A DNA stretch of 64,000 nucleotides from Candidatus Brocadiia bacterium (lineage in GTDB: Bacteria > Planctomycetota > Brocadiia > SM23-32), in the NCBI GenBank assembly GCA_046538485.1, contig JBKHIT010000008.1, positions 32,001 through 96,000 of the forward strand, read 5' to 3'. A model generated the notes under the pieces. The model did no database searches. It saw only the letters and a program-made list of their open reading frames with translations, and was not told the DNA's origin. The translations under genes and the position numbers were made by a program. Every line of letters starts with the position of its first letter. The first letter of the stretch is position 1. Of the stretch, positions 4,865 to 63,218 are shown in pieces.

Positions 4865-5124
4865 GCTGTTGCTTGCTCCGCTGGATCGGGGAAACAGTTT
4901 TCATGCAATCTCAGGCAGGATATCGATTATATCGCCCAGCGCCCCCGGTTCAAACGAATTGAGCGATTTCAGCGTTAAACGCATTAGAAGAGTTCGAAGG
5001 GACTTAAGAGACGTAAGGGACACAGGTCGGGGCGAAAGCGCCGCCCGCTGCTGTTTTTAAGAGGCGCCTTCTCTGGTATACTTGGAAACAAATCGAGCCC
5101 TGTTTTCGGCTGGAATGTCAAAAA

Positions 5125-5889
5125 ATGACCGCAAACCACCTCTATCTCGCTTTCGATATCGGAAATACTACGGTCCGCATTGCCGTCCGCGGCACGGAGG
5201 GATGGGAACCCGTGGAGACCATACGCACTCGGCCGCTGGAGAACCTGCCGGACCGAGTGGGCGATGCCGTATCCCATGCGGACCTCGCCGGTGAGCCAGA
5301 TCGCATTCTGGCCTCGTCGGTCTGCCCGACTATAGACGATATGGTGGTGGAGACTTGCAACAAATCGGGATGGCGAGTGCCGGAATTTTTCGGTAAGGAT
5401 CTCCCGATACCGATACAAACTTCCGTCCGCGAACCGGAAAAGGTAGGAAATGATCGCTTGCTCTGTGCGCTGGGAGCTCGGGAAATGGTCGGTAGCCCCT
5501 GCATTGTCATCGGGATGGGCACGGCCATCACCGTTGATCTTATCGATCATGAGGGGATATTCGCGGGGGGGGCAATCGCCCCGGGTTTGCGCTTAAGCGC
5601 ACGGGCGCTCAATGAAGGCACAGCCGCCCTGCCCGCAATTCTCATCGATTCTCCCGCCGAAACACCGGGGAAAGACACCGAATCTGCGATTCGGTGCGGC
5701 GTGCTGGCTTTCTGCCGCGGGGGCGTGCAAAAGCTTGTATCCAAATTCAGCGCTGAGTTTCAAAGCGACCTCGAAGTTGTACTGACGGGAGGCGATGCGA
5801 ATTGGCTGGAATGTGATACCTGGGACAGATCGGTTCGGCAGGTTCCCCTGTTGATTTTCCGTGGTATGAAAGTAGCCGTCTCGGAGTAA
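5125..5889 (+). CDS. coaX: Type III pantothenate kinase
   Basis: DIGNT, GNDR, GTAITVD, GGAIAPG, LTGGDA motifs. Confidence 0.95.
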   Translation: MTANHLYLAFDIGNTTVRIAVRGTEGWEPVETIRTRPLENLPDRVGDAVSHADLAGEPDRILASSVCPTIDDMVVETCNKSGWRVPEFFGKDLPIPIQTSVREPEKVGNDRLLCALGAREMVGSPCIVIGMGTAITVDLIDHEGIFAGGAIAPGLRLSARALNEGTAALPAILIDSPAETPGKDTESAIRCGVLAFCRGGVQKLVSKFSAEFQSDLEVVLTGGDANWLECDTWDRSVRQVPLLIFRGMKVAVSE

Positions 5890-5989
5890 TACCACAGGTT
5901 GAGGGGCGACCGGAATCGGGATCTTCAAACCGTGCGAAGCACCTGGCTCTTGTTCTCGGGTAAAGGGTCTATTTTCGAGAGAAACCGGT

Positions 5990-7102
5990 TTAAGAATCTT
6001 CCGCAAGCGCACGAATCCGGGCCTGCTTGTCCCATTCCTTAAGAGCTTCTACAATCGGATCCAGCTTCCCCATTAAAACGGTTTCAATCCCAAACGTATC
6101 CAGCCCGATACGGTGATCGGTCACCCGGTCCTGGGGGAAATTATACGTTCGGACCCGCTGGTTACGGTCGCCGCTGCCAACCTGGGTCCGACGGAGTTCA
6201 TCACGTTTTTCTTTCTGTTCTTCCTGCTGTTTCTCGTAAATCTTTGCCCGCAACAGTTTCAAAGCCTGTTTCCTGTTTTTGTGTTGCGATTTTTCCTCCT
6301 GGCATTTCACAGCAATCCCGGTCGGTTCGTGGACAATGCGGACACACGAATCGACTTTGTTGACGTTCTGCCCGCCCGGGCCGGTTGAGCGCATAAAACT
6401 GATGTCAAGATCTTCCGGTTTGAGTTCAACTTCCACCTCCCGGACTTCCGGCAAAACGGCAACGGTCGCAAGACTTGTATGAATCCGTCCTTGAGACTCG
6501 GTTTTGGGTACCCTCTGCACGCGGTGCCCGCCACTTTCAAAACGCAGGTGCTGCCAGACCCCATTGCCGCTGATCGAAAGCACGATGTGTTTGAAGCCCC
6601 CCATGTCAGTGATACTTTTATCGAGGCAGCGAACCTTCCAGCCTTTTTGCTGGGCGTAGTGTTTGTACATCCCGAACAGATCCGCCGCGAAAAGCGCCGC
6701 CTCCTGCCCGCCGGTCCCGCTACGGATTTCCATAATAGCGCTTCGATGGGCTTCCTCGGAATCCGAACAGAGCTCACCAAGCACTTCATGAAGTATCTCG
6801 TTCTCCGATTTATCCGCCGCCTTTATTTCATCTTCGGCCAGCTCCGTCAATTCCGGATCCTCGTCGGATTCTTCAAGAAGCTCTTCCGCTTCCTTTTTCC
6901 TCTGCCGCGCTTCCTGCAGCTGTCTGTACATATCCCGGAATTTTGTAAGCTCTCCGTGTTCCCGGGCGACGTGCGCATAGCGACCGGAATTGGATGCCAG
7001 ATCCGGATCGGCCAGTTTTTGCTCGAGTTCACGGTGTCGCTGGACCTTCTCTTCCAGCATCTCGCTCACTCGCTCTTTGATGTTTTCTTTCAACGCATCC
7101 AT
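5990..7102 (-). CDS. prfA: Peptide chain release factor 1
   Basis: GGQ motif, PKT (PxT) anticodon motif, RTYNFPQDRVTDHRI. Confidence 0.98.
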   Translation of the reverse strand: MDALKENIKERVSEMLEEKVQRHRELEQKLADPDLASNSGRYAHVAREHGELTKFRDMYRQLQEARQRKKEAEELLEESDEDPELTELAEDEIKAADKSENEILHEVLGELCSDSEEAHRSAIMEIRSGTGGQEAALFAADLFGMYKHYAQQKGWKVRCLDKSITDMGGFKHIVLSISGNGVWQHLRFESGGHRVQRVPKTESQGRIHTSLATVAVLPEVREVEVELKPEDLDISFMRSTGPGGQNVNKVDSCVRIVHEPTGIAVKCQEEKSQHKNRKQALKLLRAKIYEKQQEEQKEKRDELRRTQVGSGDRNQRVRTYNFPQDRVTDHRIGLDTFGIETVLMGKLDPIVEALKEWDKQARIRALAEDS

Positions 7103-7167
7103 TGCTCAGGTACAGACTCCCCTCTCGTAATGTATATAAATGGGAAAAGCGTGTCCCCGGCTATCAG

Positions 7168-7422
7168 CTATTGGGATTCTTCCTGCTCGCCGCCGCCTGA
7201 AAGTTCCCGTTTTTTCTGTTCGATCGTGTCGCCCCAACGTTGCATAAATTTTTCCACACGCCCGGCGCTATCAACAAACTTTTGTTGACCTGTGTAGAAA
7301 GGATGGCACTCGGAGCACACTTCAACGCGAATTTGCGGCACGGTCGCACGAGTGGTAAAACTCGCGCCACAGCCACATTTGACCTCGCACTCTATATACT
7401 CGGGATGAATATCCGATTTCAC
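7168..7422 (-). CDS. rpmE: 50S ribosomal protein bL31 (Zn-binding type)
   Basis: [31 protein letters not shown] start. Confidence 0.97.
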
Positions 7423-7690
7423 AGGAAAGTCCTTTCGTACGTTTATAAGAGATTTTCGCCCCCAACAAACCGTATCTTACACGAAACAAACGAGCTCTGC
7501 AAATTCTCGGGCTGCCTCAGACAAGCAGATCCCGCAGTGAGCAAACCGTTTAATCCTCCCGCTCGCCTCCTCCCTTATTCTCAGCCCCTGGCTCTATTCA
7601 TGTCGGGTTTTGGATTTCTCACCGCTGCACTCGGACCGCCATATCAAAACCGACGTCAGCCGAACGAAGCTCTTCGCCGTGAGCAAGAAC

Positions 7691-8602
7691 TTACGGATAC
7701 GAACACGGATCGATGTATTTAAGATCGCCGTCCGGTTCAATCAAGGCATGCGGGGCGACCAGCATTTCGTATTCCCCGGCGCACATCTTCGACTCATTGA
7801 AACCAACTTCTCCGCAGGCGATACCGATCACATGCATGTCCCACGCCAGAGCGTTGAAATGCCCCTGGTGACGGTAGAAGAGAAAGTGGTCGGAGTTGGG
7901 TGGGTGGGAGCGCCACTCGCCCCAGCGCCGGCTGGCGCCGGTCCCGCCTGCTCCGAGACCGTCGCGCATCAACAATACTTTGGAGGGATAATTCATTTCG
8001 GCAGTCAGGTAGTACCGCTCGCATCGGTATGCTCCGCCAGCCCCGTACCAGCCCCACGTGTTCGGGTAATTGTTGTTGGTCTTAATGTTGCACCTGTAGT
8101 TGTAGAGCCCGCCCGAGGCAAGCCAGAACTTGTCGCTCGACGCATAGCTGGGGTGATTGGCAATGATAATATCAACTTCGTGCGGTACGTAGTTGTAGCA
8201 GGCATATTTCTTGCCCGATGGGGCGCACCACCCGGTATTGTCGGTGGTAAACCCGGCCGATGGACAATCCCATACACCGAGCGGCCTGGCCCACTGGGCA
8301 TGCCAGGGATAACCGTTCGGCCAGTAGTCCGGCAAATACCCGTTCTTCGTCAGGGGACCGTAGGCACCGGTGCCGTAGGTAGGACCACCAAAATCATTCA
8401 TGTACATCGTCTGCGCCAGCCCGAGCTGCCCCAGGTTGTTCTTGCAGGAAACGTCGCGGGCAGCGTCGCGCGCTCTTTCCAGCGCCGGCATCAACATAGC
8501 TGCCAGAATGGCGATAATCGCTATGACGACCAGAAGTTCTATCAAAGTGAACGCCGATTCTCTGTGACCGCCTGATTGCGTCACTACACACCCCCTTTTC
8601 AC
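7691..8602 (-). CDS. Prepilin-type N-terminal cleavage/methylation domain protein (DUF1559-like)
   Basis: [39 protein letters not shown]-terminal H-X9-D motif variant ([13 protein letters not shown]). Confidence 0.9.
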
Positions 8603-8736
8603 TAAAATCTGGCCGAGTGAAGTTCTAACTGCGCGCTTTCTGTACTACTGTATTCTCAACGCTCGCAGCCTGTCAAACTGAATCCATTAATTTACCAGGA
8701 TATGGCACTCATCCCGCGAAGACCGTGCGCCCCGAA

Positions 8737-9250
8737 AAATTTGATATCGTAAAGGACGGGATTCCTCCGATCTCCTACAGTGATTGTTTGGTTTAACCAG
8801 TTCACGTGCGAGGAGCGAGGAATCCCGTGAAGGTAGTCTCCAGCGACCCGCCTCATAACGCCCTGATCGTAAGAGACCAAAACTCTGAGGATCCGAAGAT
8901 AGATTAGATAACGCAGGACACATAGCGCGCCAGGCTCGGAAAGCGGGCAGGTGAATGCGACCGACCTGGGCCGGCGGTCAAGGCGGATCGGTGGGCGAAA
9001 CTGGACTTGAGACGGGCAGTGCCTGCAAAAATGCCAGTGCGCGCGGAAATCCCAACAAATCGACCCGCGTTCTGAACTCCAGTCCGCCCGCGGGGGGCTA
9101 ATGGGGTGAAAAACCGTTTCTTTAGTCTAAACCGGCTCATCAACGGCTCTGAAATCCGGATTCTGGGGTAAAAACTTTTTCTGCCTACCGCTAAGTCCCG
9201 ACTGTGCAAATATTTCTGCTCAACGCACATGGCTCGCTCCCACTTCAGAA
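8737..9250. repeat. ~520-560-bp non-coding mosaic element, inverted homologue of 35530-36085
   Basis: 9158-9207 is the exact reverse complement of 35567-35616. 8738-8767 matches 36053-36082 (reverse complement). 9019-9082 is identical to 451-514. Confidence 0.9.
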
Positions 9251-9281
9251 GCAAATGAACCGCCCACAGGCAGGCAAACCA

Positions 9282-10610
9282 CTAAAAGCTTTCACTGAAC
9301 TCCACAGCCGGCTCAAGCACCTCCGTCACGACTCCCGCCCCGTTCAAACGCCCGTGTCCCATCGCAACGGCCGAAAGCGAACGCGAACCGCACCCGTGTT
9401 CGGTAATATCGCCGAAAACTAGTTGAGCGATGCAGAAATAGGCTCGACCCAGATCGACTGCTCGACGCAGCAATTTAATATCTTTCCTTATGATCCCCGT
9501 CAAAGCCCACAAAGGTGGACTCGGCGCAGCATCCCCGTTCTCGTCCAACCAATCCGGTTTGTCACTTCGCATGCCGAGCGGCCCGGTCCCGACCCTCTCC
9601 GCGGGATCGACCACCATCGTCAACTCGCCGACCTCCCGAAACTGTTCTGGGGGCACCTTTTCCAAAAGTTCATCGAACTGCTCGCTCCCCGTTCGATTTC
9701 TGAAACGCCGCACGGCGGCCTGGGCTTGCCAGGCGATGGGGTTGGCGATTTCTTCGGCCGCGACCTCTGTAATACGCGCCGCAGCGTCACGATAAATCGC
9801 ATTATCCGTCTTTTCCCAAAGGGTCAGCATCGCATCGGGGACGGCCGACGCCAGCAAATTCTCGGCTTTAGACAAAAGCAAATCCAGATCGTCGGGAGCT
9901 TCGCCGGCAAAAGATTCATAATCCCCGTCCCCGTTTTTCCGCTGGTAGACCGGCCCTTCGGAATCGATCCCGACGGGCAGATTTTCGTCGGCCACGATGG
10001 CGTGTGCCCATCGTTGCCCGTAATGAATTGCGAAATCCAGGTAACGCTCCTCCCCTGTCGCATCGTGGGCAATCAAAGCGATCGATATCATGCGGACGTG
10101 TTCGGGGAAATTGAGGGACGGTTCGCCCACGAACTCGGTCCCGAGATACAGAGAACGGAAAACGCCCCGGCCCCAATCGTACCAATCCGGTGCCCCCTCG
10201 CTCCAATTGCCTATGTGATGTGCGGCATCTTCGAGTTGCCGTACCGTCTCGCGATCCGTTTTGTCGAGTCCCACCAAAGATCCCAAAAAGAGTTCAAAAT
10301 GTTCCGTGCCGTGATGAGCTTCCTGTTTTTTCCAGTATCCATGGCTCCAGCTGTCGTCCTGAACGAATCGCGCTCGGGTTCGATCCCGGTACATTTTCAT
10401 AAACCGCAAAGGACGAGGATCCCCGGTCGTACGGGCGTAGGAAGCCCAGGGAACCATGAACGTGCCCCCATCGTGGGAACCGGAACTGATCCCTTTGGAA
10501 TTGGCTTGAACGACCCGCCGCACCCAGGATTCCATTTCCGCGAGAAACTGTTGGATCGCCGCCGCGAGCGAGGGGGATTCTGGCACCGTAGCCGTTGTGG
10601 AATCAGTCAT
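9282..10610 (-). CDS. Hypothetical protein, possible (alpha/alpha)6-barrel sugar enzyme
   Basis: Long ORF with TGDPRPL/TGEERYLDFA/TDNAIYRDAA helical-hairpin repeats. Start set at MTDST after a GGAG RBS. Confidence 0.6.
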   Translation of the reverse strand: MTDSTTATVPESPSLAAAIQQFLAEMESWVRRVVQANSKGISSGSHDGGTFMVPWASYARTTGDPRPLRFMKMYRDRTRARFVQDDSWSHGYWKKQEAHHGTEHFELFLGSLVGLDKTDRETVRQLEDAAHHIGNWSEGAPDWYDWGRGVFRSLYLGTEFVGEPSLNFPEHVRMISIALIAHDATGEERYLDFAIHYGQRWAHAIVADENLPVGIDSEGPVYQRKNGDGDYESFAGEAPDDLDLLLSKAENLLASAVPDAMLTLWEKTDNAIYRDAAARITEVAAEEIANPIAWQAQAAVRRFRNRTGSEQFDELLEKVPPEQFREVGELTMVVDPAERVGTGPLGMRSDKPDWLDENGDAAPSPPLWALTGIIRKDIKLLRRAVDLGRAYFCIAQLVFGDITEHGCGSRSLSAVAMGHGRLNGAGVVTEVLEPAVEFSESF

Positions 10611-53573: not shown

Positions 53574-53643
53574 GCAAAGGAAGTTAGTGTTTGTGGAAAA
53601 CGACAGCATTCCTGTGCGAAAGACGGAAGCAAAAGGATTTCCG

Positions 53644-55917
53644 ATGGAAGAACTGGCCAAAATTCGTTGCAACAATACCTCAAATCGCAATCTGACTGGA
53701 TATGGCGTCACCTATGGCGTCCCACTTCCTCAGGGACGCCTTCAGGAACCCCAAAACGCTGCCCTCGCCATAAAACTCCCCGAGGGCTCCATTGCTCCAA
53801 TTCAGTGGAAAATCGCCGAGAAATGGCCTGACGGGTCGGTCAGGTGGATCGTGCTCGACTTTGAGATGGATCTGCCGGCCAACAAACAATCCAGTTTTGC
53901 CCTGGTGGCCGACGCCGAAACTCCCGACTATCCCAAACTGGAGATACACGAAAATAATGCCAGTATCTCCGTCGCCAACAAACACCTGCGGGTTGAGGTT
54001 GAACGGAACTCTTTCTCCCTCTTCGAATCACTGTCGGTCAATGGGCAGGAATTGATTCAGCAGGGGGCCGATATCATCGTGGTCAACCCAAAAGGCAAAC
54101 GCTATTACGCCAGTTTTACGCAAAATCTGGATGTCTCCATAGTCGAACAAGGACCCGAACGGGTCGTTATTGAAAGCTCTGGGCGCCATACTGCCAGCGA
54201 TGGCGATCAGCTGCTTTCTTTTCGTCTTCGCTACACCATAAGGCCCCATGACCCGTGCATTCGCCTCTCCTATAAGATGGCCAATGAAGAAGAACCGGAG
54301 ATGGGCGTTCACCTTGGCCGAATTTTCATGGAAATTCCTACGACACTCGGCCCCCGTCCAACACGATACGTCCGCCAAAAACACCACACCGAACTCTGGT
54401 TCACCCGGCCGGTCGAAATTCAGGAGAACGTTGAACTACAGGCCGGGAGTTTCATAAGCGAAATGGCCGAATCAGTCTATGGAAAAGCGCATTCGGGCAA
54501 GGTGGTCATACGCAACCTCCATAATTTTCGCGAAGACCTCAGCGATTATCCCCACTACCTGCGGCCTGGAAACGCCCGTTCCGATATGAGCGGCGGTTTG
54601 CGCGCGGCATATCCTTTCCTGGCAACGGTTTCAGAAAATGGTTCTTTCATCGGCTGGTTTTCCGAAATGGAGGCAAACCATCCCAAAGGGGTCGCTTCGG
54701 AACGCAATAAGATTCGTTTCGACATCTGGCCGCAATGGGCTGACAACCTCCGCCTCAACAGAGGGATGTCCAAAGAGCATGATATCTTCCTCTCGTTCGA
54801 TGACCGGCGCCTATCCTTCGAAGATCTTGAATCTCGCTATTTCGATCACGAAGTGATGGGATTCGGCATCTTTGCCGAAGGAGCCCCCCCGGTGAATTTC
54901 TCCATCGATCCCGAATACGCCCGTGAGTGTGAAGTTTTCGATATTCATCGCTGGTTGCCTTACGACGAAGACCGGTACCTGAAAATCGAGACCAAAATGG
55001 GTACCATCGGCTCAAAAGGCGGCAAAATGTCACGTGGGATGCTCGATTATGGCGACGGCATCATTCGGGACTGCAGCGCGAATAATGAAAACGATAGGAT
55101 TCTTGACCGGTTCCGGGAATACTACCGCCGCGGCAAAGCGGAGTTCCGCCGGGAAGCTCTGATCTCTGCCCGTCACAACGCACATGTCGATTTGATTTCT
55201 TATGATCCGGATGAGCTCCGACAGGGCACGATGGCTGCACATTGTCCCAACCATAGCGACGGGGCGTGTTACCCCTCTCACATGTGGGTTGGCGGACTGC
55301 TGGCGGCGTTCTGCACCACCGGTGAGCCGGATTTCGAAGAAGCCGCCATCTCCGTCGGCGAAAACATGCTCCGCTGGCAGGAAAAATGTCCTGAAGTCTT
55401 TTACTGCGACAGTCGGGAGGCCGGTTGGCCGATGCTGGCCTGGGTACAGCTCTGGCATCATAACCACGAACAGCGCTGGCTGGATGCCGCGGACCGTGTC
55501 TTCCAGTTCTACGCTGAGAAAGTGGATGAAGAGGGGAAAATAGTCTATGAAATTCCGCACAAACTCGGGACTTTCCTGCAGGGTTACGGAGAGTTTATCG
55601 CGTGGCGGGGTTGTTTCCACTATTACGAAGCGAGCGGAAAAGAAGAGGTGAAAGATTTCCTCGTCGATGTCCTGAGTAAAGAAAATATCTACAAAATCAC
55701 TCCGGCCAGAGTTGAAAAAGGTGGTTGGGCCTGCAATGACCTGTTCCCGGCCTGGGCTGTCTGGCAGCTGACCGGAGATGATAAGTTTCTCAAAGACAAT
55801 TTCCCCTTCCTGGAATACATGATGGACAGAGAAGGAACTTTCCCATGGACCGGCGTCGATGTCATGTATTACCTGAATGCCCTTCACGAACGCGGGGAAC
55901 TCGAAGAATTCTGCTGA
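53644..55917 (+). CDS. PcRGLX/YetA-like protein (putative rhamnogalacturonan lyase family)
   Basis: VTYGVPLPQG, WPDGSVRW, GMLDYGD, ARHNAHVD, SHMWVGGL, REAGW. C-terminal alpha/alpha toroid. Confidence 0.7.
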   Translation: MEELAKIRCNNTSNRNLTGYGVTYGVPLPQGRLQEPQNAALAIKLPEGSIAPIQWKIAEKWPDGSVRWIVLDFEMDLPANKQSSFALVADAETPDYPKLEIHENNASISVANKHLRVEVERNSFSLFESLSVNGQELIQQGADIIVVNPKGKRYYASFTQNLDVSIVEQGPERVVIESSGRHTASDGDQLLSFRLRYTIRPHDPCIRLSYKMANEEEPEMGVHLGRIFMEIPTTLGPRPTRYVRQKHHTELWFTRPVEIQENVELQAGSFISEMAESVYGKAHSGKVVIRNLHNFREDLSDYPHYLRPGNARSDMSGGLRAAYPFLATVSENGSFIGWFSEMEANHPKGVASERNKIRFDIWPQWADNLRLNRGMSKEHDIFLSFDDRRLSFEDLESRYFDHEVMGFGIFAEGAPPVNFSIDPEYARECEVFDIHRWLPYDEDRYLKIETKMGTIGSKGGKMSRGMLDYGDGIIRDCSANNENDRILDRFREYYRRGKAEFRREALISARHNAHVDLISYDPDELRQGTMAAHCPNHSDGACYPSHMWVGGLLAAFCTTGEPDFEEAAISVGENMLRWQEKCPEVFYCDSREAGWPMLAWVQLWHHNHEQRWLDAADRVFQFYAEKVDEEGKIVYEIPHKLGTFLQGYGEFIAWRGCFHYYEASGKEEVKDFLVDVLSKENIYKITPARVEKGGWACNDLFPAWAVWQLTGDDKFLKDNFPFLEYMMDREGTFPWTGVDVMYYLNALHERGELEEFC

Positions 55918-56277: not shown

Positions 56278-56561
56278 TGGTCTGAAAGACCACTCAGGTC
56301 TGGGTTATGGAGAAGCACAACATGTTGCGGGCTGAAGGCCCGCCTCAATTTGCTGTTGTTTGGAAAGCGCGTTTCTTTATCAAACCTCAGGATAGTTGTC
56401 GCAGACCGCTTAGACTCGCCCGGGTCTTTCGACCCGGTTCATAGCGGGGATCGGGTGTGTCACATGCGCCTTTCGGAGGATACTGAGAAGGACAGTTCAG
56501 ACGGCGTATAGAAACGCCGGTAGAGTTCCCGTAGTTCGTTTTGCAGGAGATTTCATCACAA

Positions 56562-57698
56562 ATGACGGAAAAGAATGCTGATTTGCCTGATCCACGAAAA
56601 GTGGCGCAGCAAGAGGCAGAACAAATCAAGAACGATTACGAATTCATTTTTGAAAAGAGTCTGAAACGGGCCATTGCCGACCGTCCATCGCTCGACCGAG
56701 AGCGTTTGTTCCGGGAACTGGTGGAGTTTCATCGGGAACGGATGAACAAAATCCCGCCCCGAGCGAAATACCCCGAGGCGGCTCCGTGGGTCGGGTACGT
56801 CATTGAACGTGACCGCGAGTTGCAGCGAATCTCGGGACTTTCCGACCGGGAAATGGCCCAGCTGCGGAGTCTCAATGACTACCTCCGGTTCAGGGGTTGG
56901 GGCAATCTTTGCCCTGTCAGCTCTGAAAAATGCCGGGTCGTTTATCTGCCCGACTCGGATCGGGGGGAATTTCATATAAAGAATGTCGATGACCCCCTCA
57001 CGAACTGGGAACCGTCAGACGAGCCGCCCCCCTCACCCCGTTTTCCGGAACTCATGATGGATGGGGTGGGCGCGGGGCTTCATCTGGATGACGAGCCAGA
57101 GCAGATTTTTCCGCTTCCGATCCGGCAGATGTGCTCAAAACTCGCCGAAAATCTGCCGTCGGCCCTTGAGTTTCTACAACGATACTCACCGTTCTGGGGC
57201 GCGCAAAATCTGCTGCTGCACGACCGCCAGAAATGCAGCATCGCCATCGAAAAGACAAGCTATAATTTCATGGACGTTTATGAACCCGGCACATCCGGTG
57301 AGAGCCATATCAGCGGGATGGTCTGCCGGGAACCCAAAACCGAGCAAGGACGATACGTCGAACGAAAACGCAAAGAGTTCACCGAACGGATCGGACAGGA
57401 TGAAGAGGGGCCCTGCGGAAAATTCTGGCAGGCGTGCGACCGCGCGGAACAAATGCTGGCGGAATTGCTGTCGAAGGTAGATGTCACCATCGATGAAATA
57501 CTGGAGCTTTTCACCACGACCTGGCCGGAAGGACTCAACAAAGCCGGCGCGGTTTTTCATCCGGATCAGCCCTACGCCTCATGGACACTGGTCACACACG
57601 CCCGGTTGCCGGATCAAGGAATGGTTTTACGCTGGCAGCGCAGCGCCGATGGCGCGTATCCCGATAAACCGCAAGTGTTTGAATACCCGATGGGATAA
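56562..57698 (+). CDS. Hypothetical protein, possible Ntn-hydrolase (C45-like)
   Basis: Long ORF. EKCRVVY..HIKNVDD resembles the Cys-nucleophile plus NxD pattern. Confidence 0.6.
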   Translation: MTEKNADLPDPRKVAQQEAEQIKNDYEFIFEKSLKRAIADRPSLDRERLFRELVEFHRERMNKIPPRAKYPEAAPWVGYVIERDRELQRISGLSDREMAQLRSLNDYLRFRGWGNLCPVSSEKCRVVYLPDSDRGEFHIKNVDDPLTNWEPSDEPPPSPRFPELMMDGVGAGLHLDDEPEQIFPLPIRQMCSKLAENLPSALEFLQRYSPFWGAQNLLLHDRQKCSIAIEKTSYNFMDVYEPGTSGESHISGMVCREPKTEQGRYVERKRKEFTERIGQDEEGPCGKFWQACDRAEQMLAELLSKVDVTIDEILELFTTTWPEGLNKAGAVFHPDQPYASWTLVTHARLPDQGMVLRWQRSADGAYPDKPQVFEYPMG

Positions 57699-58040: not shown

Positions 58041-61000
58041 TTACGGCTGAACTTCGATCTCCACGGGCTGGGTCGCATCGCGGACCTCCGGCTCGTAGTA
58101 CTGATAGACTTCCGTCGGAGGCGTCTTGGCCTTAACGGGGTATTTGGCCCGCAGGTGATACGTGAACCGTACGGGTTCGTTGCCGACAATGCTCTCGAAA
58201 TACAGGATCACCTGTCGACCGGTCAGGGAATATCGCTGAATCAAGCCCTGCTCTTTCAGGCGGTCAAAATCCTCCGTCATGACCTGAAAGCCCGGCGGAA
58301 TGCCCAGATCAACAATTGTCATGCGGGCCACACCGCTCCGGTTGTAGCGGATCGTCGCCTCGCACGCTAATTTGTCGTCCGGACGCAACTTCGTGGTATC
58401 GTACGCTACATCGATGCTCATGGTCTTCTGGGTGGTCGGGGTTTTTCTCTCCCAGGGGAGGTAATGGGTGGCGACGATCTGGTAGGCAAAATTCGCTTCC
58501 CCGGCCGGTTCCAGAGATATCCGGTTGGGTCCGGGTTTCTGGTGTTCGCGCAGGCTGATCAGCCGGAAAACATCGCTGGTCTCCGGCGTGATGGTCAGTT
58601 CTCTGGCGAATTTTCCGTTGACCGAGATCGTGATCGGGAGGTCTTGTTTCAGTTCGGTTGCGGGCCCGGTGCCAGCAAGGAGGGCGCGCATCGCGTGTAC
58701 AGTAGCCTGGGTGGAATGCCACGTGCCGGCTGAATCTTTCTCCTCGATGAGCCAGGCCAGAGCTCTGTGCGCCGTGCCGAGATGAGATTGAGCTTTCAAC
58801 ATCGCGTATGCGGCCAGGGCCGTGGTTTCAATGTTCAGGACATTGCCCCGGGAGTGGGTCACACCCTCCGATTTGGAACTCCAGTGCGCAAGGTCTCCGT
58901 CCTCCTTTTTCGTGGCGTCAAGCATCTTAATTAAATCCCCGGCGCCGGATCGCTCGCCCGCGACGAGCGCATTGGCGCAGACGGCAAGCGTGTAAGCGTC
59001 TTCGTCGCTCGATACGTTCTGTTCGACGTAGTCGAGGGCACGTGAAAGGTTGGAGTCTACGTTTCCCGACTCCGCCAGAGCCCATGCGATGTAGGCGGTT
59101 GTTCGGAGGACGGCGCCCTGGTAGGCGTTGATGGCACCTTCCTGGATGCCCCCCTGGGTCGGTTCCCATGAGCCATTGCGTTTTTGCTGCGAGAACAACC
59201 ACCGGCGCGTTCGCTGTATGACGGCGGGATCGACCTCATAAACTTTCGCCATGTCGTTGAATTCCATCAGACCGTACGCTGTCAGAACGCTGTGGGCGGG
59301 CGCGTTTCCGAACCATTCGAATCCGCCCCCGCTGACTTCGTAGGAGAGCAGACGCTGGTAACCGAGGTTGATGTAATTGAGCGCTTTCATCTCGATTTCG
59401 GGCCTGGATTGATCCGTGCGGCGCATGTAGTCGAGCGCCAGAATGTTGGGGTATGTCACTGAAGACGTCTGTTCGAAACAGCCAAACGGTTTGCGGAAGA
59501 TGCTGTCCAGTCCTTCCATCACCTGGCTGAAGGCGCCGGGATAGATTTTCACCAGCAGGTCGGAGGCGCCATCGATGGCCCGATCGGGAATCACGACCGT
59601 GCGGTTCAGTTTGCCGGTGAGGCGCCCGTTATCCGTCTGGACGATCTCTTTGCCGTCGGGTCGGACGCGGACCTTACGCCGGATCGCGTCGGCCATCTCG
59701 GATCCGAAAGCGCGAACGGTGAGGGTGTGGCGGCCGGGTTTGAGCGCGCGCAGTTTCATCGGGATACTCGTAACTTCCCGGGGACCGATTTCGAGCCGGC
59801 GTTCGGTCTCCCCGAGCATCTCGCACCAATCCGCATCGTCGACTTCCAGCCGGATCAGCTGGGTTTCGTCGAGATAGTTGTAGAGGGCGATCGGGACGCT
59901 GATTTCGTCGTGTTGGGTGAGGGCGACCGGGAAATCAATATCCACAAAGAAATCCTGAAACACCCGCAGCCCGAAGGTCTCCGCGCCCAATCTTCCCTGT
60001 CTCGAGACCGCGCTCATACTGATCCGCCAGGTGGTGATGGAATCGGCGAGCGGGACTTCCAGTTGAGCCCGGCCGGCCTCATCGGTAATAAGTTCCGGTT
60101 TCCAGAGAAGTGTTTCCGGGAAATAGTGTCGGACGCGGCTGGGGGCTTTCAAACTTTCATCTGCAGCCTTTTTGCGCCCCTTTGCGGCTCCGCGAACAGG
60201 GCTTCCATCAAGCGCTTCAGTCATCTCCGCAAACTTCTGGCGTGCGGCCATCCGGGCGGGAGACAGTGCCGGGAGGAGCAACCCGGCGAAGACGAGGAGC
60301 GCGAGAACGGGCAAGGCACCGCTGCGAACGGCTATCCAGACCGCGCGTTTTGTTGAAAGTTTCTGGCAGACAGAGTGTCCCGCAATTGACAGCGCGGGCA
60401 GCGCCGCAAACCAGAGACCGATCATAATCCCCGCTTCCAGCACAATTGTTTCTTCCGCCAGGCCCAACTCAGCTTCGGCGATTGCAAGGGTTAGGATCGA
60501 TACGCTGGCTGCAATATAGGCGAAAGGCAAAAGCGTGGCGAATTTACGGAAAAGCGGCAGGTTGCTGACTCCGGGGCCCTTCCGGAATTTGAAAACCTTG
60601 GCTATGAGGGCTATCAACATGCCGATCCAGGCAATCACCCCAAAACTACCGCTAAAAAGTTCGCCGTGGTAGCGCGCAAAAGCATTCTCGATAATTAGTT
60701 CATCAATAAGCAATCCCACGATGAGTGCTGTGACGGGAATAACCAGTGCCAACAACCAGCTTGCTGTCAGCCACCAGCATGCCCGTCGGAGTCGGTTCAT
60801 CTCTTTTGCATTTAGCTCCGGCACCGGACGTCGTCTGAACAGTTTGTAAAGGCCGTAACCGACCATGGGCAGCACAAACAAGACATACAGTGCAAACGGG
60901 ACCTGTGCGGCCAGTTTCAGGACAGCCCTGCGGTAGTTCACTTTCACTTTTCGAAATCGTCTCTGTTTTTCCTCAAATGAAATGCTCTGCGCTTTCCTCG

Positions 61001-63218
61001 GTGTGGCCGTTCCCTCGGCGGCGGAGAACAGCGCAACCCGGGCTTCTTTCAGTTGTGGTTCCGATTCCCCACGCGGCTCAATGGCCTCTTCAGCCGTCAG
61101 CGGCATATGGCCGTGAATCTCATAGGAAGGTTTGAGTATCTCTTCCTGAAGCGTGAAATAGACCCGTTCGAGTCCCGGGCGCATTTCCTGGAGAGCGAAC
61201 ACGGCCTCGTCCACTCCGGCCAGGCCCAGCGCCGCCTGTGTTGGTTTTCCTTCGGTCCCGGTTACCATGAACGTCAAGGTTGCGTTTTCCCCCGGACGGT
61301 ACGTTTTTTTGTCCATTTTGGTCTCGATCGAGATCTGATCGGGTCGGTTGACCTGGACCACTTTTGCGTCGCTCACGATATTACCGTCGGGCAGGATGCG
61401 ATACGCGTGGAGTTCGAGTGTTCCGAACAGGTCGGGCGGTAGATCGAGTGCAACGGATCCGCGCCCTTTCTCGATATCAAGGGCTTTGCTTAACATCGTC
61501 CGGCTGTTTTTCACGACATCCACGAAAACCCGGGCCCGTCGGTCGCCGGAGAGGACGGATACCTCAGCCGTTTCCCCCGCTTTATAAACGGCTTTGTCAG
61601 TGCGGAGGAGAAAAGCGTGGACCCGCTGATCGACGCGGAGAGGTCGGCTGACTTTCACCCGGCGCCCTCCGTTGTCTTCGGCTTCGATCGTGAGTTTCAT
61701 GCGGGGGGACCGGGGGGTGATTTTGACTTTGGCGAGTCCATTCTCCGCGGTGCGTGTTCTGCGGCGATCAGCACCGATGATCAGTTCGGTCTGTGCCGGT
61801 CGGCCGTCGGGATATGACGTCACGATGTAGAGGATGTTTTCGACGCCCTGGACGAGTCTGCCGCTTTCCGGGAGCACGGCCACGCGTATCGGGCGGGTTG
61901 TGACGGTCAGTTCTTCAGTAATTTCCTGGGTATGACCGGCGGTATCGGTCACTTTAGCTTTGAGAGAAACCGTGGCATCTCCCTTTTTGCGGGCGGTGCC
62001 GGTGAAATGGCGTTTCAGAGGAAGCTGGAACGAAAAATGCCCTTCAGCGTTGGTTTTGCCCTCGGCACTGGCGAACTGACGGAACTTTTCCACAAACTCC
62101 GAGGCTGTGATCTGCACCTCCGCGTTCCGAACGGGTTTCCCGAATGTGTAGCGAGCGGTTATTTCGCCGATGAGCATTTCGCCGGGCCGGTAGAACGTTT
62201 TTCCGCAGCTTATGGTGGCCTTGAACTTCGGCAAACGATAACGTTTGACCGTCACCGTGCGTTCCGATGTGGTGTCGCCGACATGGGCGGAGATGGTGTA
62301 GCGACCGGTGTTGACCTGATCGGCGAGCTGGAAATCGGCGGCCGCGATCCCGTATTGGGAGGTTTTCAGCGTCTTTTTAAAGACCTTGTTGCCTTTAGCG
62401 TCTTTGACTTCGATCGTTGCCGGCTGGTCGGCGACGGGGTGGAGGTCGCTGGTGAAAAGCGACAGGGTCCGCATATGAATCGTCTGCCCGGGCTGGTAGA
62501 GCGGTTTATCGCTGCTGATCATTACCCGGAAAGACCGTTCGATGGTGATGGTGCGGGAGACGACGTTTTTCCCCGCGGCTGATTTTGCGCGCACCCGGAG
62601 GGTATAATCGCCTTCCGATAGGTCCTCGGCCAGTTCTGGCTCAACCCGGGCGTTGCCGTGTTTGTCCGTTTTTGTTGTGCCTTCCCATATCTGTTTCCCA
62701 CCGGGGTCCACCAGTGCGGCGGATACTTTCGCGTTAGGGACGGGTTTTGATTTTTTGCCGTCACGCACGAAAAGCCGAAACGACGCGATCTGTCCCGGTG
62801 TGACCGCCCAGCGTCCGTAGACCATAGTTTCCTGTGGTTTCGCGTGACGCGTGGCGATGTGGCGGTCGATTCCGAGTAAGCCGATGGTTATCAGCGCGAT
62901 GGCGGCGGCGGCGATTTTCCAGAACCGTTTGCTTCCCAGCCAATCTGCCTTCGGTTCGACGGGTTCAGAAGCCATGGTTTGACCCTCCATTCCTTTCTTT
63001 TGCGTCTGCGCCGCTTTTATGGTCCTTTCGGCCAGATCTTCGGGAGGAGGAGGTGCATCCCATTCCCGCAGAGCTTCCTTCTGGCGGCGTATCTTGTCCC
63101 GTGCCTGCCGGCATTCGCGGCAGATTTGCAGGTGTTTTTCTACCTGCTCTCTTTCATCTCCATCGAGCAGATCGAAGACCAGGTCATAGAGTTTTTGCTG
63201 GACTTCTTCGCACTTCAT
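58041..63218 (-). CDS. Zinc anti-sigma (zf-HC2)-TM-alpha-2-macroglobulin fusion with polytopic membrane insert
   Basis: C3..H29LQIC33REC36, TM at aa ~99-117, MG-domain motifs SDKPLYQPGQ / YTFGKPV / DKKTYRPGE / VDEAVFAL, RVRHYFPETLLW, DSITTW, thioester GCFEQ, C-terminal MTIVDLGIPPGF..VYQYYEPE. Confidence 0.92.
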   Translation of the reverse strand: MKCEEVQQKLYDLVFDLLDGDEREQVEKHLQICRECRQARDKIRRQKEALREWDAPPPPEDLAERTIKAAQTQKKGMEGQTMASEPVEPKADWLGSKRFWKIAAAAIALITIGLLGIDRHIATRHAKPQETMVYGRWAVTPGQIASFRLFVRDGKKSKPVPNAKVSAALVDPGGKQIWEGTTKTDKHGNARVEPELAEDLSEGDYTLRVRAKSAAGKNVVSRTITIERSFRVMISSDKPLYQPGQTIHMRTLSLFTSDLHPVADQPATIEVKDAKGNKVFKKTLKTSQYGIAAADFQLADQVNTGRYTISAHVGDTTSERTVTVKRYRLPKFKATISCGKTFYRPGEMLIGEITARYTFGKPVRNAEVQITASEFVEKFRQFASAEGKTNAEGHFSFQLPLKRHFTGTARKKGDATVSLKAKVTDTAGHTQEITEELTVTTRPIRVAVLPESGRLVQGVENILYIVTSYPDGRPAQTELIIGADRRRTRTAENGLAKVKITPRSPRMKLTIEAEDNGGRRVKVSRPLRVDQRVHAFLLRTDKAVYKAGETAEVSVLSGDRRARVFVDVVKNSRTMLSKALDIEKGRGSVALDLPPDLFGTLELHAYRILPDGNIVSDAKVVQVNRPDQISIETKMDKKTYRPGENATLTFMVTGTEGKPTQAALGLAGVDEAVFALQEMRPGLERVYFTLQEEILKPSYEIHGHMPLTAEEAIEPRGESEPQLKEARVALFSAAEGTATPRKAQSISFEEKQRRFRKVKVNYRRAVLKLAAQVPFALYVLFVLPMVGYGLYKLFRRRPVPELNAKEMNRLRRACWWLTASWLLALVIPVTALIVGLLIDELIIENAFARYHGELFSGSFGVIAWIGMLIALIAKVFKFRKGPGVSNLPLFRKFATLLPFAYIAASVSILTLAIAEAELGLAEETIVLEAGIMIGLWFAALPALSIAGHSVCQKLSTKRAVWIAVRSGALPVLALLVFAGLLLPALSPARMAARQKFAEMTEALDGSPVRGAAKGRKKAADESLKAPSRVRHYFPETLLWKPELITDEAGRAQLEVPLADSITTWRISMSAVSRQGRLGAETFGLRVFQDFFVDIDFPVALTQHDEISVPIALYNYLDETQLIRLEVDDADWCEMLGETERRLEIGPREVTSIPMKLRALKPGRHTLTVRAFGSEMADAIRRKVRVRPDGKEIVQTDNGRLTGKLNRTVVIPDRAIDGASDLLVKIYPGAFSQVMEGLDSIFRKPFGCFEQTSSVTYPNILALDYMRRTDQSRPEIEMKALNYINLGYQRLLSYEVSGGGFEWFGNAPAHSVLTAYGLMEFNDMAKVYEVDPAVIQRTRRWLFSQQKRNGSWEPTQGGIQEGAINAYQGAVLRTTAYIAWALAESGNVDSNLSRALDYVEQNVSSDEDAYTLAVCANALVAGERSGAGDLIKMLDATKKEDGDLAHWSSKSEGVTHSRGNVLNIETTALAAYAMLKAQSHLGTAHRALAWLIEEKDSAGTWHSTQATVHAMRALLAGTGPATELKQDLPITISVNGKFARELTITPETSDVFRLISLREHQKPGPNRISLEPAGEANFAYQIVATHYLPWERKTPTTQKTMSIDVAYDTTKLRPDDKLACEATIRYNRSGVARMTIVDLGIPPGFQVMTEDFDRLKEQGLIQRYSLTGRQVILYFESIVGNEPVRFTYHLRAKYPVKAKTPPTEVYQYYEPEVRDATQPVEIEVQP

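Follow-up and report, generated by a model that had tools for sequence, protein, structure and literature searches.

We describe a bacterial alpha-2-macroglobulin (A2M) that carries a bundle of six transmembrane (TM) helices at the site where animal A2M and complement proteins hold their bait region or anaphylatoxin domain. The gene lies on the reverse strand of a 64,000-nucleotide stretch of DNA from a Candidatus Brocadiia bacterium (assembly GCA_046538485.1, contig JBKHIT010000008.1, positions 32,001 to 96,000), the whole of which is here called the window. Its 1725-aa product joins an N-terminal anti-sigma domain, seven predicted TM helices and a thioester A2M, and the gene for a sigma factor of the extracytoplasmic function (ECF) type lies directly upstream. 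The six-TM design is widespread, conserved and apparently undescribed. The reading we prefer, and hold to be somewhat better than an even proposition, is that of an integral-membrane thioester A2M in which the bundle is a structural second anchor, the linker distal to it is the bait, and the trap doubles as a sensor linked to the sigma factor.

The insert lies at the bait site

Judged by its sequence, the protein belongs to the thioester A2M superfamily, with a series of macroglobulin (MG) domains, a split MG6 followed by the Pfam A2M domain (MG7), and a thioester domain (TED) that bears CxEQ. Pfam matched MG2 at residues 232-319 (E 5.1e-40, in two stretches), MG3 at 327-401, MG4, and A2M_BRD at 538-676, and the thioester motif GCFEQ stands at residues 1246-1250 (window positions 59469-59483). 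This motif recurs in 114 of the 121 proteins scanned, in which all CxEQ matches read GCFEQ.

No Pfam domain lies between residues 677 and 1035, A2M_BRD ending at 676 and Pfam A2M beginning at 1036; a Pfam scan of residues 677-1035 gave nothing but a spurious match at E 0.096. At the C-terminal edge of this gap, SRVRHYFPETLLW (residues 1026-1038) finds its counterpart immediately past the bait of three animal proteins: in SQVRQYFPETWLW of A2ML1, at chain residue 729 in human A2M and at about residue 698 in CD109. Its residue 1030 pairs with residue 16 of the C3b alpha' chain and with the start of the human A2M sequence that follows the bait. At the N-terminal edge, VDEAV is matched by VDKSV in CD109 (residue 618). 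The insert amounts to 352 residues, against about 80 at the same place in CD109. It thus stands in the place of the A2M bait and, in C3, C4 and C5, of the linker, the anaphylatoxin domain and the alpha' N-terminus. An earlier reading of the DNA letters (the original prediction) had put about six TM helices at the bait region, and both the borders of A2M_BRD and A2M and the alignments to A2ML1, CD109, A2M and C3b alpha' bear out that placement.

Topology and predicted fold of the bundle

Kyte-Doolittle hydropathy (19-aa window, threshold 1.6) peaks at residue 99 (TM1) and then six more times, at residues 765/773, 820, 854, 896, 925 and 967. The six hydrophobic segments quoted in the original prediction are all present in the 1725-aa translation and coincide with these six peaks, and the span given for them, window positions 60240-60925, corresponds to residues 765-993. 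With the helices lettered A to F, loops A-B, C-D and E-F of the query hold 7, 6 and 4 lysines plus arginines (K+R), and loops B-C and D-E are short or acidic. Averaged over 112 aligned homologues, K+R is 5.2, 4.1 and 2.2 in loops A-B, C-D and E-F versus 1.05 and 0.94 in B-C and D-E, and net charge is +2.1, +3.5 and +1.9 in the former versus -0.2 and -1.4 in the latter and -1.2 after helix F. The alternation of basic and acidic loops described in the original prediction is therefore a feature of the query and of its homologues alike.

These charges fit the positive-inside rule, which would place both ends of the bundle in the periplasm (out/out). The orientation of zf-HC2 anti-sigma factors is known to be N-in, and this, taken together with the loop charges, would set the MG domains outside. 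Hydropathy, loop charges and the zf-HC2 domain suggest in combination an N-in topology, with TM1 crossing outward and both halves of the A2M in the periplasm, as expected from the earlier proposal that an even number of helices keeps the two halves on the same side of the membrane.

When the insert was modelled by itself with AlphaFold 2 (AF2), on an alignment of 26 trimmed relatives, the result was likewise six long helices, with a mean local confidence (pLDDT) of 87.4 and a predicted template modelling score (pTM) of 0.80. A longer model of residues 90-1230 (1141 aa, 45 sequences) had a mean pLDDT of 81.1 and a pTM of 0.59. A complex prediction of TM1 (residues 90-135) with the six-helix bundle, run with no controls, scored 0.00 and is uninformative on packing either way.

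The linkers and the candidate bait

In the 1141-aa model the bundle is flanked by two stretches with pLDDT below 50, residues 679-718 and 984-1021. Compared region by region, mean identity to the query is 0.52 in MG1-MG6a, 0.75 in helix 677-699, 0.29 in residues 700-722, 0.41 in a conserved EEA..LFSAAEG segment, 0.24 in the six TM helices and 0.71 in MG6b-MG7, and reaches its lowest value, 0.13, in the linker 986-1023. This distal linker directly precedes the FPETLLW strand, and its length in homologues (25-68 aa, 5th to 95th percentile) is the most variable of all regions. Because it is disordered, hypervariable and located at the site of the A2M bait and of C3 convertase cleavage, the distal linker is the likeliest bait candidate on the grounds of sequence and model, with residues 700-722 as a second candidate. 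The original prediction held that the bait was either tethered to or replaced by a membrane module. Replacement is probably the wrong half of that statement, since the bundle lies between disordered linkers, of which the distal one is hypervariable.

Identity of the bundle

When 1.84 billion representative proteins were searched by phmmer with residues 745-1000, 13 matched at E <= 0.001, all of them A2M-family proteins, or fragments of such proteins, with the segment at the same position; no relative of the bundle outside the A2M family was found. One 382-aa protein (P0122) was considered as a stand-alone bundle and rejected; it begins with the pre-insert segment of the family and ends in unrelated sequence, and is consequently read as a frame-shifted fragment. 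An ESM Atlas look-up of the insert returned no usable match, and Foldseek comparison of the insert model with the PDB returned none at E <= 0.001 (best E 0.43). The top VIA-align match, to generic four-helix bundles, scored Z 9.3 across 127 of 256 residues, below the level that the notes of the tool call meaningful for helical proteins. Taken together, Pfam, phmmer, Foldseek and VIA-align neither point to nor speak against any of the described six-TM families (rhomboid, CPBP/Abi, exosortase, transporters and others).

A cross-phylum alignment of 26 inserts showed 11-28% identity to the query and no column conserved at 90% or above. Within the clade of the Planctomycetes-Verrucomicrobia-Chlamydiae (PVC) type, the bundle has near-invariant residues (P774, Y788, P888, R891 and P898), the C-D loop has the consensus PLLRK....LP.AY, and helix A is followed by RLxRRxP. 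The absence of residues invariant across phyla, together with the absence of an outside relative or fold match, argues for a structural rather than a catalytic role of the bundle.

Distribution of the family and age of the insert

A homologue search with residues 640-1130 recovered 2061 proteins at E <= 0.001 among 7999 scored, and most of the best 120 span the whole of this region. Of these proteins, 112 from several phyla, 42-95% identical to the query, were aligned. All six helix positions are hydrophobic in 109 of the 112, five in two, and two, still an even number, in one.

Relatives occur at no fewer than 627 loci when each species is represented by one genome, spanning Planctomycetota, Verrucomicrobiota, Lentisphaerota, Acidobacteriota, Chloroflexota and others; 74 loci were kept, within which 66 A2M open reading frames (ORFs) were analysed and 54 could be assessed for the gap. 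TM inserts occur in 34 of these 54, with exactly six segments in 25, five in two, seven in two, eight in two, four in one and two in two; the odd counts stem from a crude threshold. The remaining 20 ORFs have no TM segment in the gap. These TM-free forms, found in Gemmataceae, Armatimonadota, Hydrogenedentota and Poribacteria, hold 240-460 aa at the same site, with the motif D.WG..Y...S.GPD in 13 of the 20, and three of five segments scanned (Table 1) matched Pfam T2SSG (type II secretion pseudopilin G) below threshold, with 20.4, 20.2 and 16.8 bits versus a cutoff of 21. The modules of Gemmataceae, of about 400-460 aa, appear by eye to be internally duplicated.

The TM-free sister clades share with the six-TM forms the MG core, GCFEQ, a ..LFSAAEG-like segment and the FPETLLW strand, and cluster with them on a tree of the core. 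They differ in having no TM helices in the gap, a soluble pseudopilin-like module in their place, and no ECF sigma gene upstream (0 of 20). The tree was built from 52 proteins on core columns only, with the insert excluded, and is unrooted, so that gain and loss are indistinguishable on it. Presence or absence of TM helices required 2 changes on this tree versus a mean of 16.1 when labels were shuffled, and none of 500 shuffles was as low; the starred branches of the tree would even permit a single change. Different modules at the same site, separated by only two changes, indicate that module exchange was rare and took place long ago.

The original prediction had also described the DNA of the insert as more AT-rich than its flanks and suggested that it might be an exchangeable cassette. 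The GC content of the insert, 0.555, lies between that of the window (0.539) and that of the gene (0.577), and in 300-nt windows it dips to 0.52-0.54 at the insert versus 0.57-0.62 in the flanks; a local dip is there, and it is weak. GC at third codon positions (GC3) is 0.619 in the insert versus 0.728 expected from the codon usage of the remaining gene. The same value of 0.619 is found in the first 226 codons of the gene, and it falls within the range (0.53-0.67) of the 30 other stop-to-stop frames of at least 350 codons in the window. The dip, the departure from the expected GC3 (0.62 versus 0.73) and the presence of a different module in sister clades count in favour of a recently acquired cassette or an assembly artefact. 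However, the same six helices are kept in 109 of 112 homologues of 42-95% identity from many phyla, the GC3 value recurs in the first 226 codons and is ordinary for the window, so that base composition gives no hint of a foreign origin, and the TM label changes only twice on the core tree, as in none of the shuffles. A recent cassette event is refuted by these data, an assembly chimera is ruled out by the conserved helices and the ordinary GC3, and we give this explanation of the insert practically no weight. What survives of the cassette idea is the rare exchange of modules at this site in deep time.

Some members of the family depart from the usual form. In loci L019, L042, L071, L072, L021, L033, L037 and L064 the gene is split into an ORF of about 1200-1390 aa, which ends after MG7/CUB, and a downstream ORF of about 465-480 aa, the latter (about 470 aa) matching the C-terminal part of the query; this is either a two-gene form or a frameshift. 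GCFEQ is likewise missing in P0017, P0030, P0040, P0044, P0084, P0104 and P0106. Loci L018, L028, L061 and L067 come from metagenome-assembled genomes (MAGs) labelled Woesearchaeota, Rickettsiales, Bacillota or Alcaligenaceae and group with Armatimonadota, PVC or Planctomycetota on the core tree, which suggests binning errors or transfers. Source annotations of the homologues read 'MG2 domain-containing protein', 'hypothetical protein', 'YfaS' or 'anti-sigma factor RsiW'.

Linkage to ECF sigma factors

The N-terminus of the protein has the sequence hallmarks of a class I anti-sigma factor: an N-terminal HxxxCxxC motif, a single TM helix after the domain and an adjacent ECF sigma gene. The latter lies upstream on the same strand, 16 nt from the start codon of the A2M gene, and the two are likely co-transcribed. 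The association recurs in the family. An ECF sigma gene stands directly upstream in 9 of the 15 loci in which the first TM helix of the A2M is at residue 60 or later, and in none of the 43 loci with a short N-terminus. All eight assessable sigma-linked ORFs have a TM insert (the ninth is truncated).

N-termini were surveyed in 121 proteins (the query and the best 120 of the 2061 homologues), of which 116 were assessable; 25 carry HxxxCxxC, 55 are long without the motif and 36 are short. Two Verrucomicrobiota-type loci (L002 and L005) have long motif-less N-termini, yet a sigma gene upstream, and some motif-less N-termini may therefore be divergent anti-sigma domains. For the gene studied here, the anti-sigma domain and the adjacent ECF sigma gene, which played no part in the original prediction, provide a concrete cytoplasmic output, and most six-TM relatives are without them. 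Across the 74 loci no neighbour was recurrently conserved except the ECF sigma factor (a 7-locus cluster) and one 10-locus cluster.

A juxtamembrane motif, P.EP...WLG.RRFW, directly precedes TM1 (residues 84-100, window positions ~62919-62969). It is kept in the six-TM clade of the PVC type, even where a member begins at this point and has no anti-sigma domain (e.g., P0123), and is absent from the six-TM forms of Anaerolineae and from TM-free forms.

Proposed mechanism and its alternatives

In the mechanism that we favour, the anti-sigma domain would lie in the cytoplasm, TM1 would cross outward, and MG1-MG6a would fold in the periplasm. The chain would then dip into and out of the membrane three times as the six-helix bundle before MG6b, MG7, CUB, the TED with its GCFEQ thioester and the receptor-binding domain (RBD) follow in the periplasm. 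The bundle would be neither an enzyme nor a transporter; it would serve as a structural second membrane anchor, or platform, that presents two flexible, protease-accessible linkers at the membrane surface, of which the distal one (residues 986-1023) is most likely the bait. By analogy with the convertase cleavage of C3, cutting the bait would free the N-terminus of the C-terminal half. The usual A2M rearrangement would then expose the GCFEQ thioester for capture, with both halves still tethered to the cell. In the members fused to an anti-sigma domain (this gene and a minority of its relatives), the trap probably doubles as a sensor of proteases or of attack on the envelope, and its report could reach the ECF sigma factor through helix movement or through secondary proteolysis of the anti-sigma half.

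Four observations weigh against this reading. Most six-TM relatives have no anti-sigma domain (HxxxCxxC occurs in only 25 of 116), so that a sensor-to-sigma link is not the general function of the design. After bait cleavage the anti-sigma half would keep about 600 periplasmic residues, and for this reason standard site-1/site-2 proteolysis leading to sigma release would not be automatic. The conserved number and spacing of helices and the near-invariant residues of the PVC-type clade amount to more constraint than a plain anchor needs, given that TM1 already anchors the protein. Finally, the segment before helix A is also K/R-rich across the 112 homologues, which is atypical for a periplasmic flank.

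As an alternative, the bundle may be a transmembrane signal transducer, in which rearrangement of the A2M after bait cleavage moves the helices and their cytoplasmic loops and so acts on the anti-sigma domain or another cytoplasmic partner to release the ECF sigma factor; that the module could pass the conformational change of the trap across the membrane had been part of the original prediction. The best-conserved insert residues of the PVC-type clade do lie in cytoplasmic loops (the PLLRK motif, which includes P888 and R891, and the RLxRRxP that follows helix A), this clade also keeps the juxtamembrane WLGxRRFW ahead of TM1, and sigma linkage goes with the TM insert (8 of 8 assessable sigma-linked ORFs, versus none of the 20 TM-free ORFs). 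However, most six-TM members have a short N-terminus and no sigma gene (43 loci; 36 short-N proteins), the Anaerolineae six-TM forms lack both conserved motifs, and no residue is invariant across phyla. We consider a transducer doubtful on balance. Far less probable is a bundle with an activity of its own, be it that of a channel, a transporter or a lipid-handling enzyme, or a role as substrate of an intramembrane protease (also suggested in the original prediction), that regulates, or is regulated by, the A2M ectodomain. Such an activity would agree with the strongly kept number and spacing of the helices and with the confident, compact predicted bundle (pTM 0.80), but neither conserved polar or catalytic residues, nor a sequence relative outside the family, nor a specific fold match, nor a usable ESM Atlas match was found for it. 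Beyond the structural anchor with a distal bait that we prefer, a bolder version of the same design, a 'complement-like sentinel', can be imagined, in which the bait sits on the six-helix platform, cleavage by a foreign protease releases, in the anti-sigma-fused members, the ECF sigma factor through the seven-helix unit, and the bundle is the membrane counterpart of the anaphylatoxin domain. We hold this version to be unlikely, somewhat more so than the transducer; if true, it would amount to a transcription switch triggered by proteolytic attack.

Gene layout and neighborhood

The features of the gene and of the sigma factor gene are listed in Table 1, together with the TM-free segments of sister clades that were scanned with Pfam.

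Table 1. Coordinates of the A2M fusion gene, its parts and the adjacent sigma factor gene in the window, and of TM-free segments in other loci
Feature	Position	Strand	Basis
Whole gene, anti-sigma / 7-TM / thioester A2M fusion, 1725 aa	58041..63218	(-)	ORF translation and Pfam
ECF sigma factor gene, 205 aa	63235..63852	(-)	Pfam Sigma70_r2 E 4.2e-21, Sigma70_r4_2 E 8.5e-17
zf-HC2 anti-sigma domain, predicted cytoplasmic, residues 3-37	63108..63212	(-)	Pfam PF13490 E 2.2e-8, 34.4 bits vs cutoff 22.2
TM1, residues 99-117, predicted N-in/C-out signal anchor	62868..62924	(-)	Kyte-Doolittle peak 2.07; AF2 helix 97-123
MG1-MG6a, predicted periplasmic, residues 118-676, including MG2, MG3 and A2M_BRD	61191..62867	(-)	Pfam; beta-rich, pLDDT mostly 80-95
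Proximal linker, residues 677-747: conserved helix 677-699, disordered 700-722, conserved EEA..LFSAAEG	60978..61190	(-)	pLDDT, identity by region
Six-helix transmembrane bundle, residues 748-985, including periplasmic extension of helix A	60264..60977	(-)	Hydropathy, AF2, homologue alignment
Distal linker, residues 986-1023, disordered and hypervariable, best bait candidate	60150..60263	(-)	pLDDT, identity, length
MG6b-MG7, residues 1024-1125	59844..60149	(-)	Pfam A2M PF00207 at 1036-1125, E 2.2e-20; mean identity 0.71
Thioester domain (TED), residues 1229-1513	58680..59534	(-)	Pfam TED_complement E 8.9e-49
Receptor-binding / MG8-like C-terminal domain, residues 1631-1713	58080..58328	(-)	Pfam A2M_recep E 6.9e-16
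TM-free segments scanned	L020:10534-11319, L066:11639-12397, L040:11681-12736, L037:11651-12928, L055:11651-12850		Armatimonadota, Hydrogenedentota, Gemmataceae, unclassified MAG (L040)

The sigma factor gene also matched NCBIfam TIGR02937 (sigma70-ECF) with 117.8 bits versus a cutoff of 42.9. In the zf-HC2 domain the zinc motif HxxxCxxC reads H29-x3-C33-x2-C36, and the sole NCBIfam match of the protein, at its N-terminus, was 'antisigma' (E 7.7e-12, below cutoff). Two neighboring ORFs on the forward strand, 53587-55917 (+) of 776 aa and 56541-57698 (+) of 385 aa, had no NCBIfam match at E <= 0.001; the latter gene is convergent with the 3' end of the A2M gene. Simple scans for promoters and terminators gave matches at chance level only.

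The genome from which the window comes holds one copy of the six-TM A2M type and three very distant A2M-like giant frames of 2156, 1812 and 2693 aa (C43 ~74176-76923, C80 ~4943-7486 and C40 ~6330-9773), which show 22-29% identity over pieces. Several further proteins of the same genome match the anti-sigma N-terminus.

Comparison with known systems

A multi-pass membrane module at the bait or anaphylatoxin site represents a new way to build a protein of the A2M/complement type, and the 2061 homologues at E <= 0.001 and the at least 627 loci in species-representative genomes show that it is not peculiar to one genome. The occurrence of a six-TM bundle or a pseudopilin-like module at one and the same site makes the bait position an evolutionary insertion hotspot beyond animals, and with the anti-sigma fusion comes a directly testable model of the way in which bacteria could perceive attack on their envelope by proteases. 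In the literature searched, which did not cover subscription journals, we came upon no account of an A2M with TM helices or with an anti-sigma fusion.

By sequence the protein is far closer to animal A2ML1, CD109, A2M and C3 than to the A2M of E. coli or Salmonella. Matches to PDB sequences had E values of 6.5e-68 for A2ML1, 8.9e-67 for CD109, 1.2e-63 for human A2M and about 5e-49 for C3, whereas the E. coli and Salmonella structures matched weakly (4u48, E 3.4e-8; 5a42, E 1.1e-7), with no significant individual domain. This closeness to animal thioester proteins has a bearing on how the complement/A2M system arose. The order MG, split MG6, MG7, CUB, TED and RBD and the CxEQ motif are common to our protein and to eukaryotic thioester proteins (A2M, A2ML1, CD109, insect TEP1, C3/C4/C5). 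So is an insertion between the MG6 halves, which is the bait in A2M and the anaphylatoxin domain in C3, C4 and C5, and which here includes a disordered hypervariable stretch directly before the FPETLLW strand. The differences lie in the inserted six-helix TM bundle of about 240 aa, the predicted seven-pass architecture, the cytoplasmic anti-sigma domain, and the reading GCFEQ where the eukaryotic proteins have GCGEQ. Proteins of the A2M and complement type are known only as soluble, lipid-anchored or GPI-anchored (CD109) molecules.

Among bacterial systems, ECAM pairs with pbpC and MagD belongs to a six-gene operon, whereas no conserved partner gene was found around the six-TM A2M family in the 74 loci. 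The type I proteins (E. coli ECAM/YfhM and Salmonella A2M) have a thioester, and our protein has the thioester motif. It differs from type I and from type II (P. aeruginosa MagD) in that those are lipoproteins, as the PDB names and the lipobox of ECAM indicate, or periplasmic proteins and are not known to have TM helices. Its N-terminus is a 98-aa region, predicted to be cytoplasmic, followed by a TM helix, rather than that of a type I lipoprotein, and its kinship with the ECAM and Salmonella proteins is distant. These two types, ECAM-like and MagD-like, are the bacterial A2M types described in the literature searched (PMC5764988).

At its N-terminus the protein parallels the class I zf-HC2 anti-sigma factors. 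The main text of the paper that re-classified ECF sigma factors (PMC7826278) contains no mention of macroglobulin, A2M, MG2 or thioester. Anti-sigma factors of this class such as RsiW and RseA likewise combine an HxxxCxxC domain with one TM helix and a sensor outside the cytoplasm, and their genes directly follow those of their ECF sigma factors. In contrast to RsiW and RseA, the predicted sensor part of the protein described here is a 1600-aa A2M with six further passes through the membrane.

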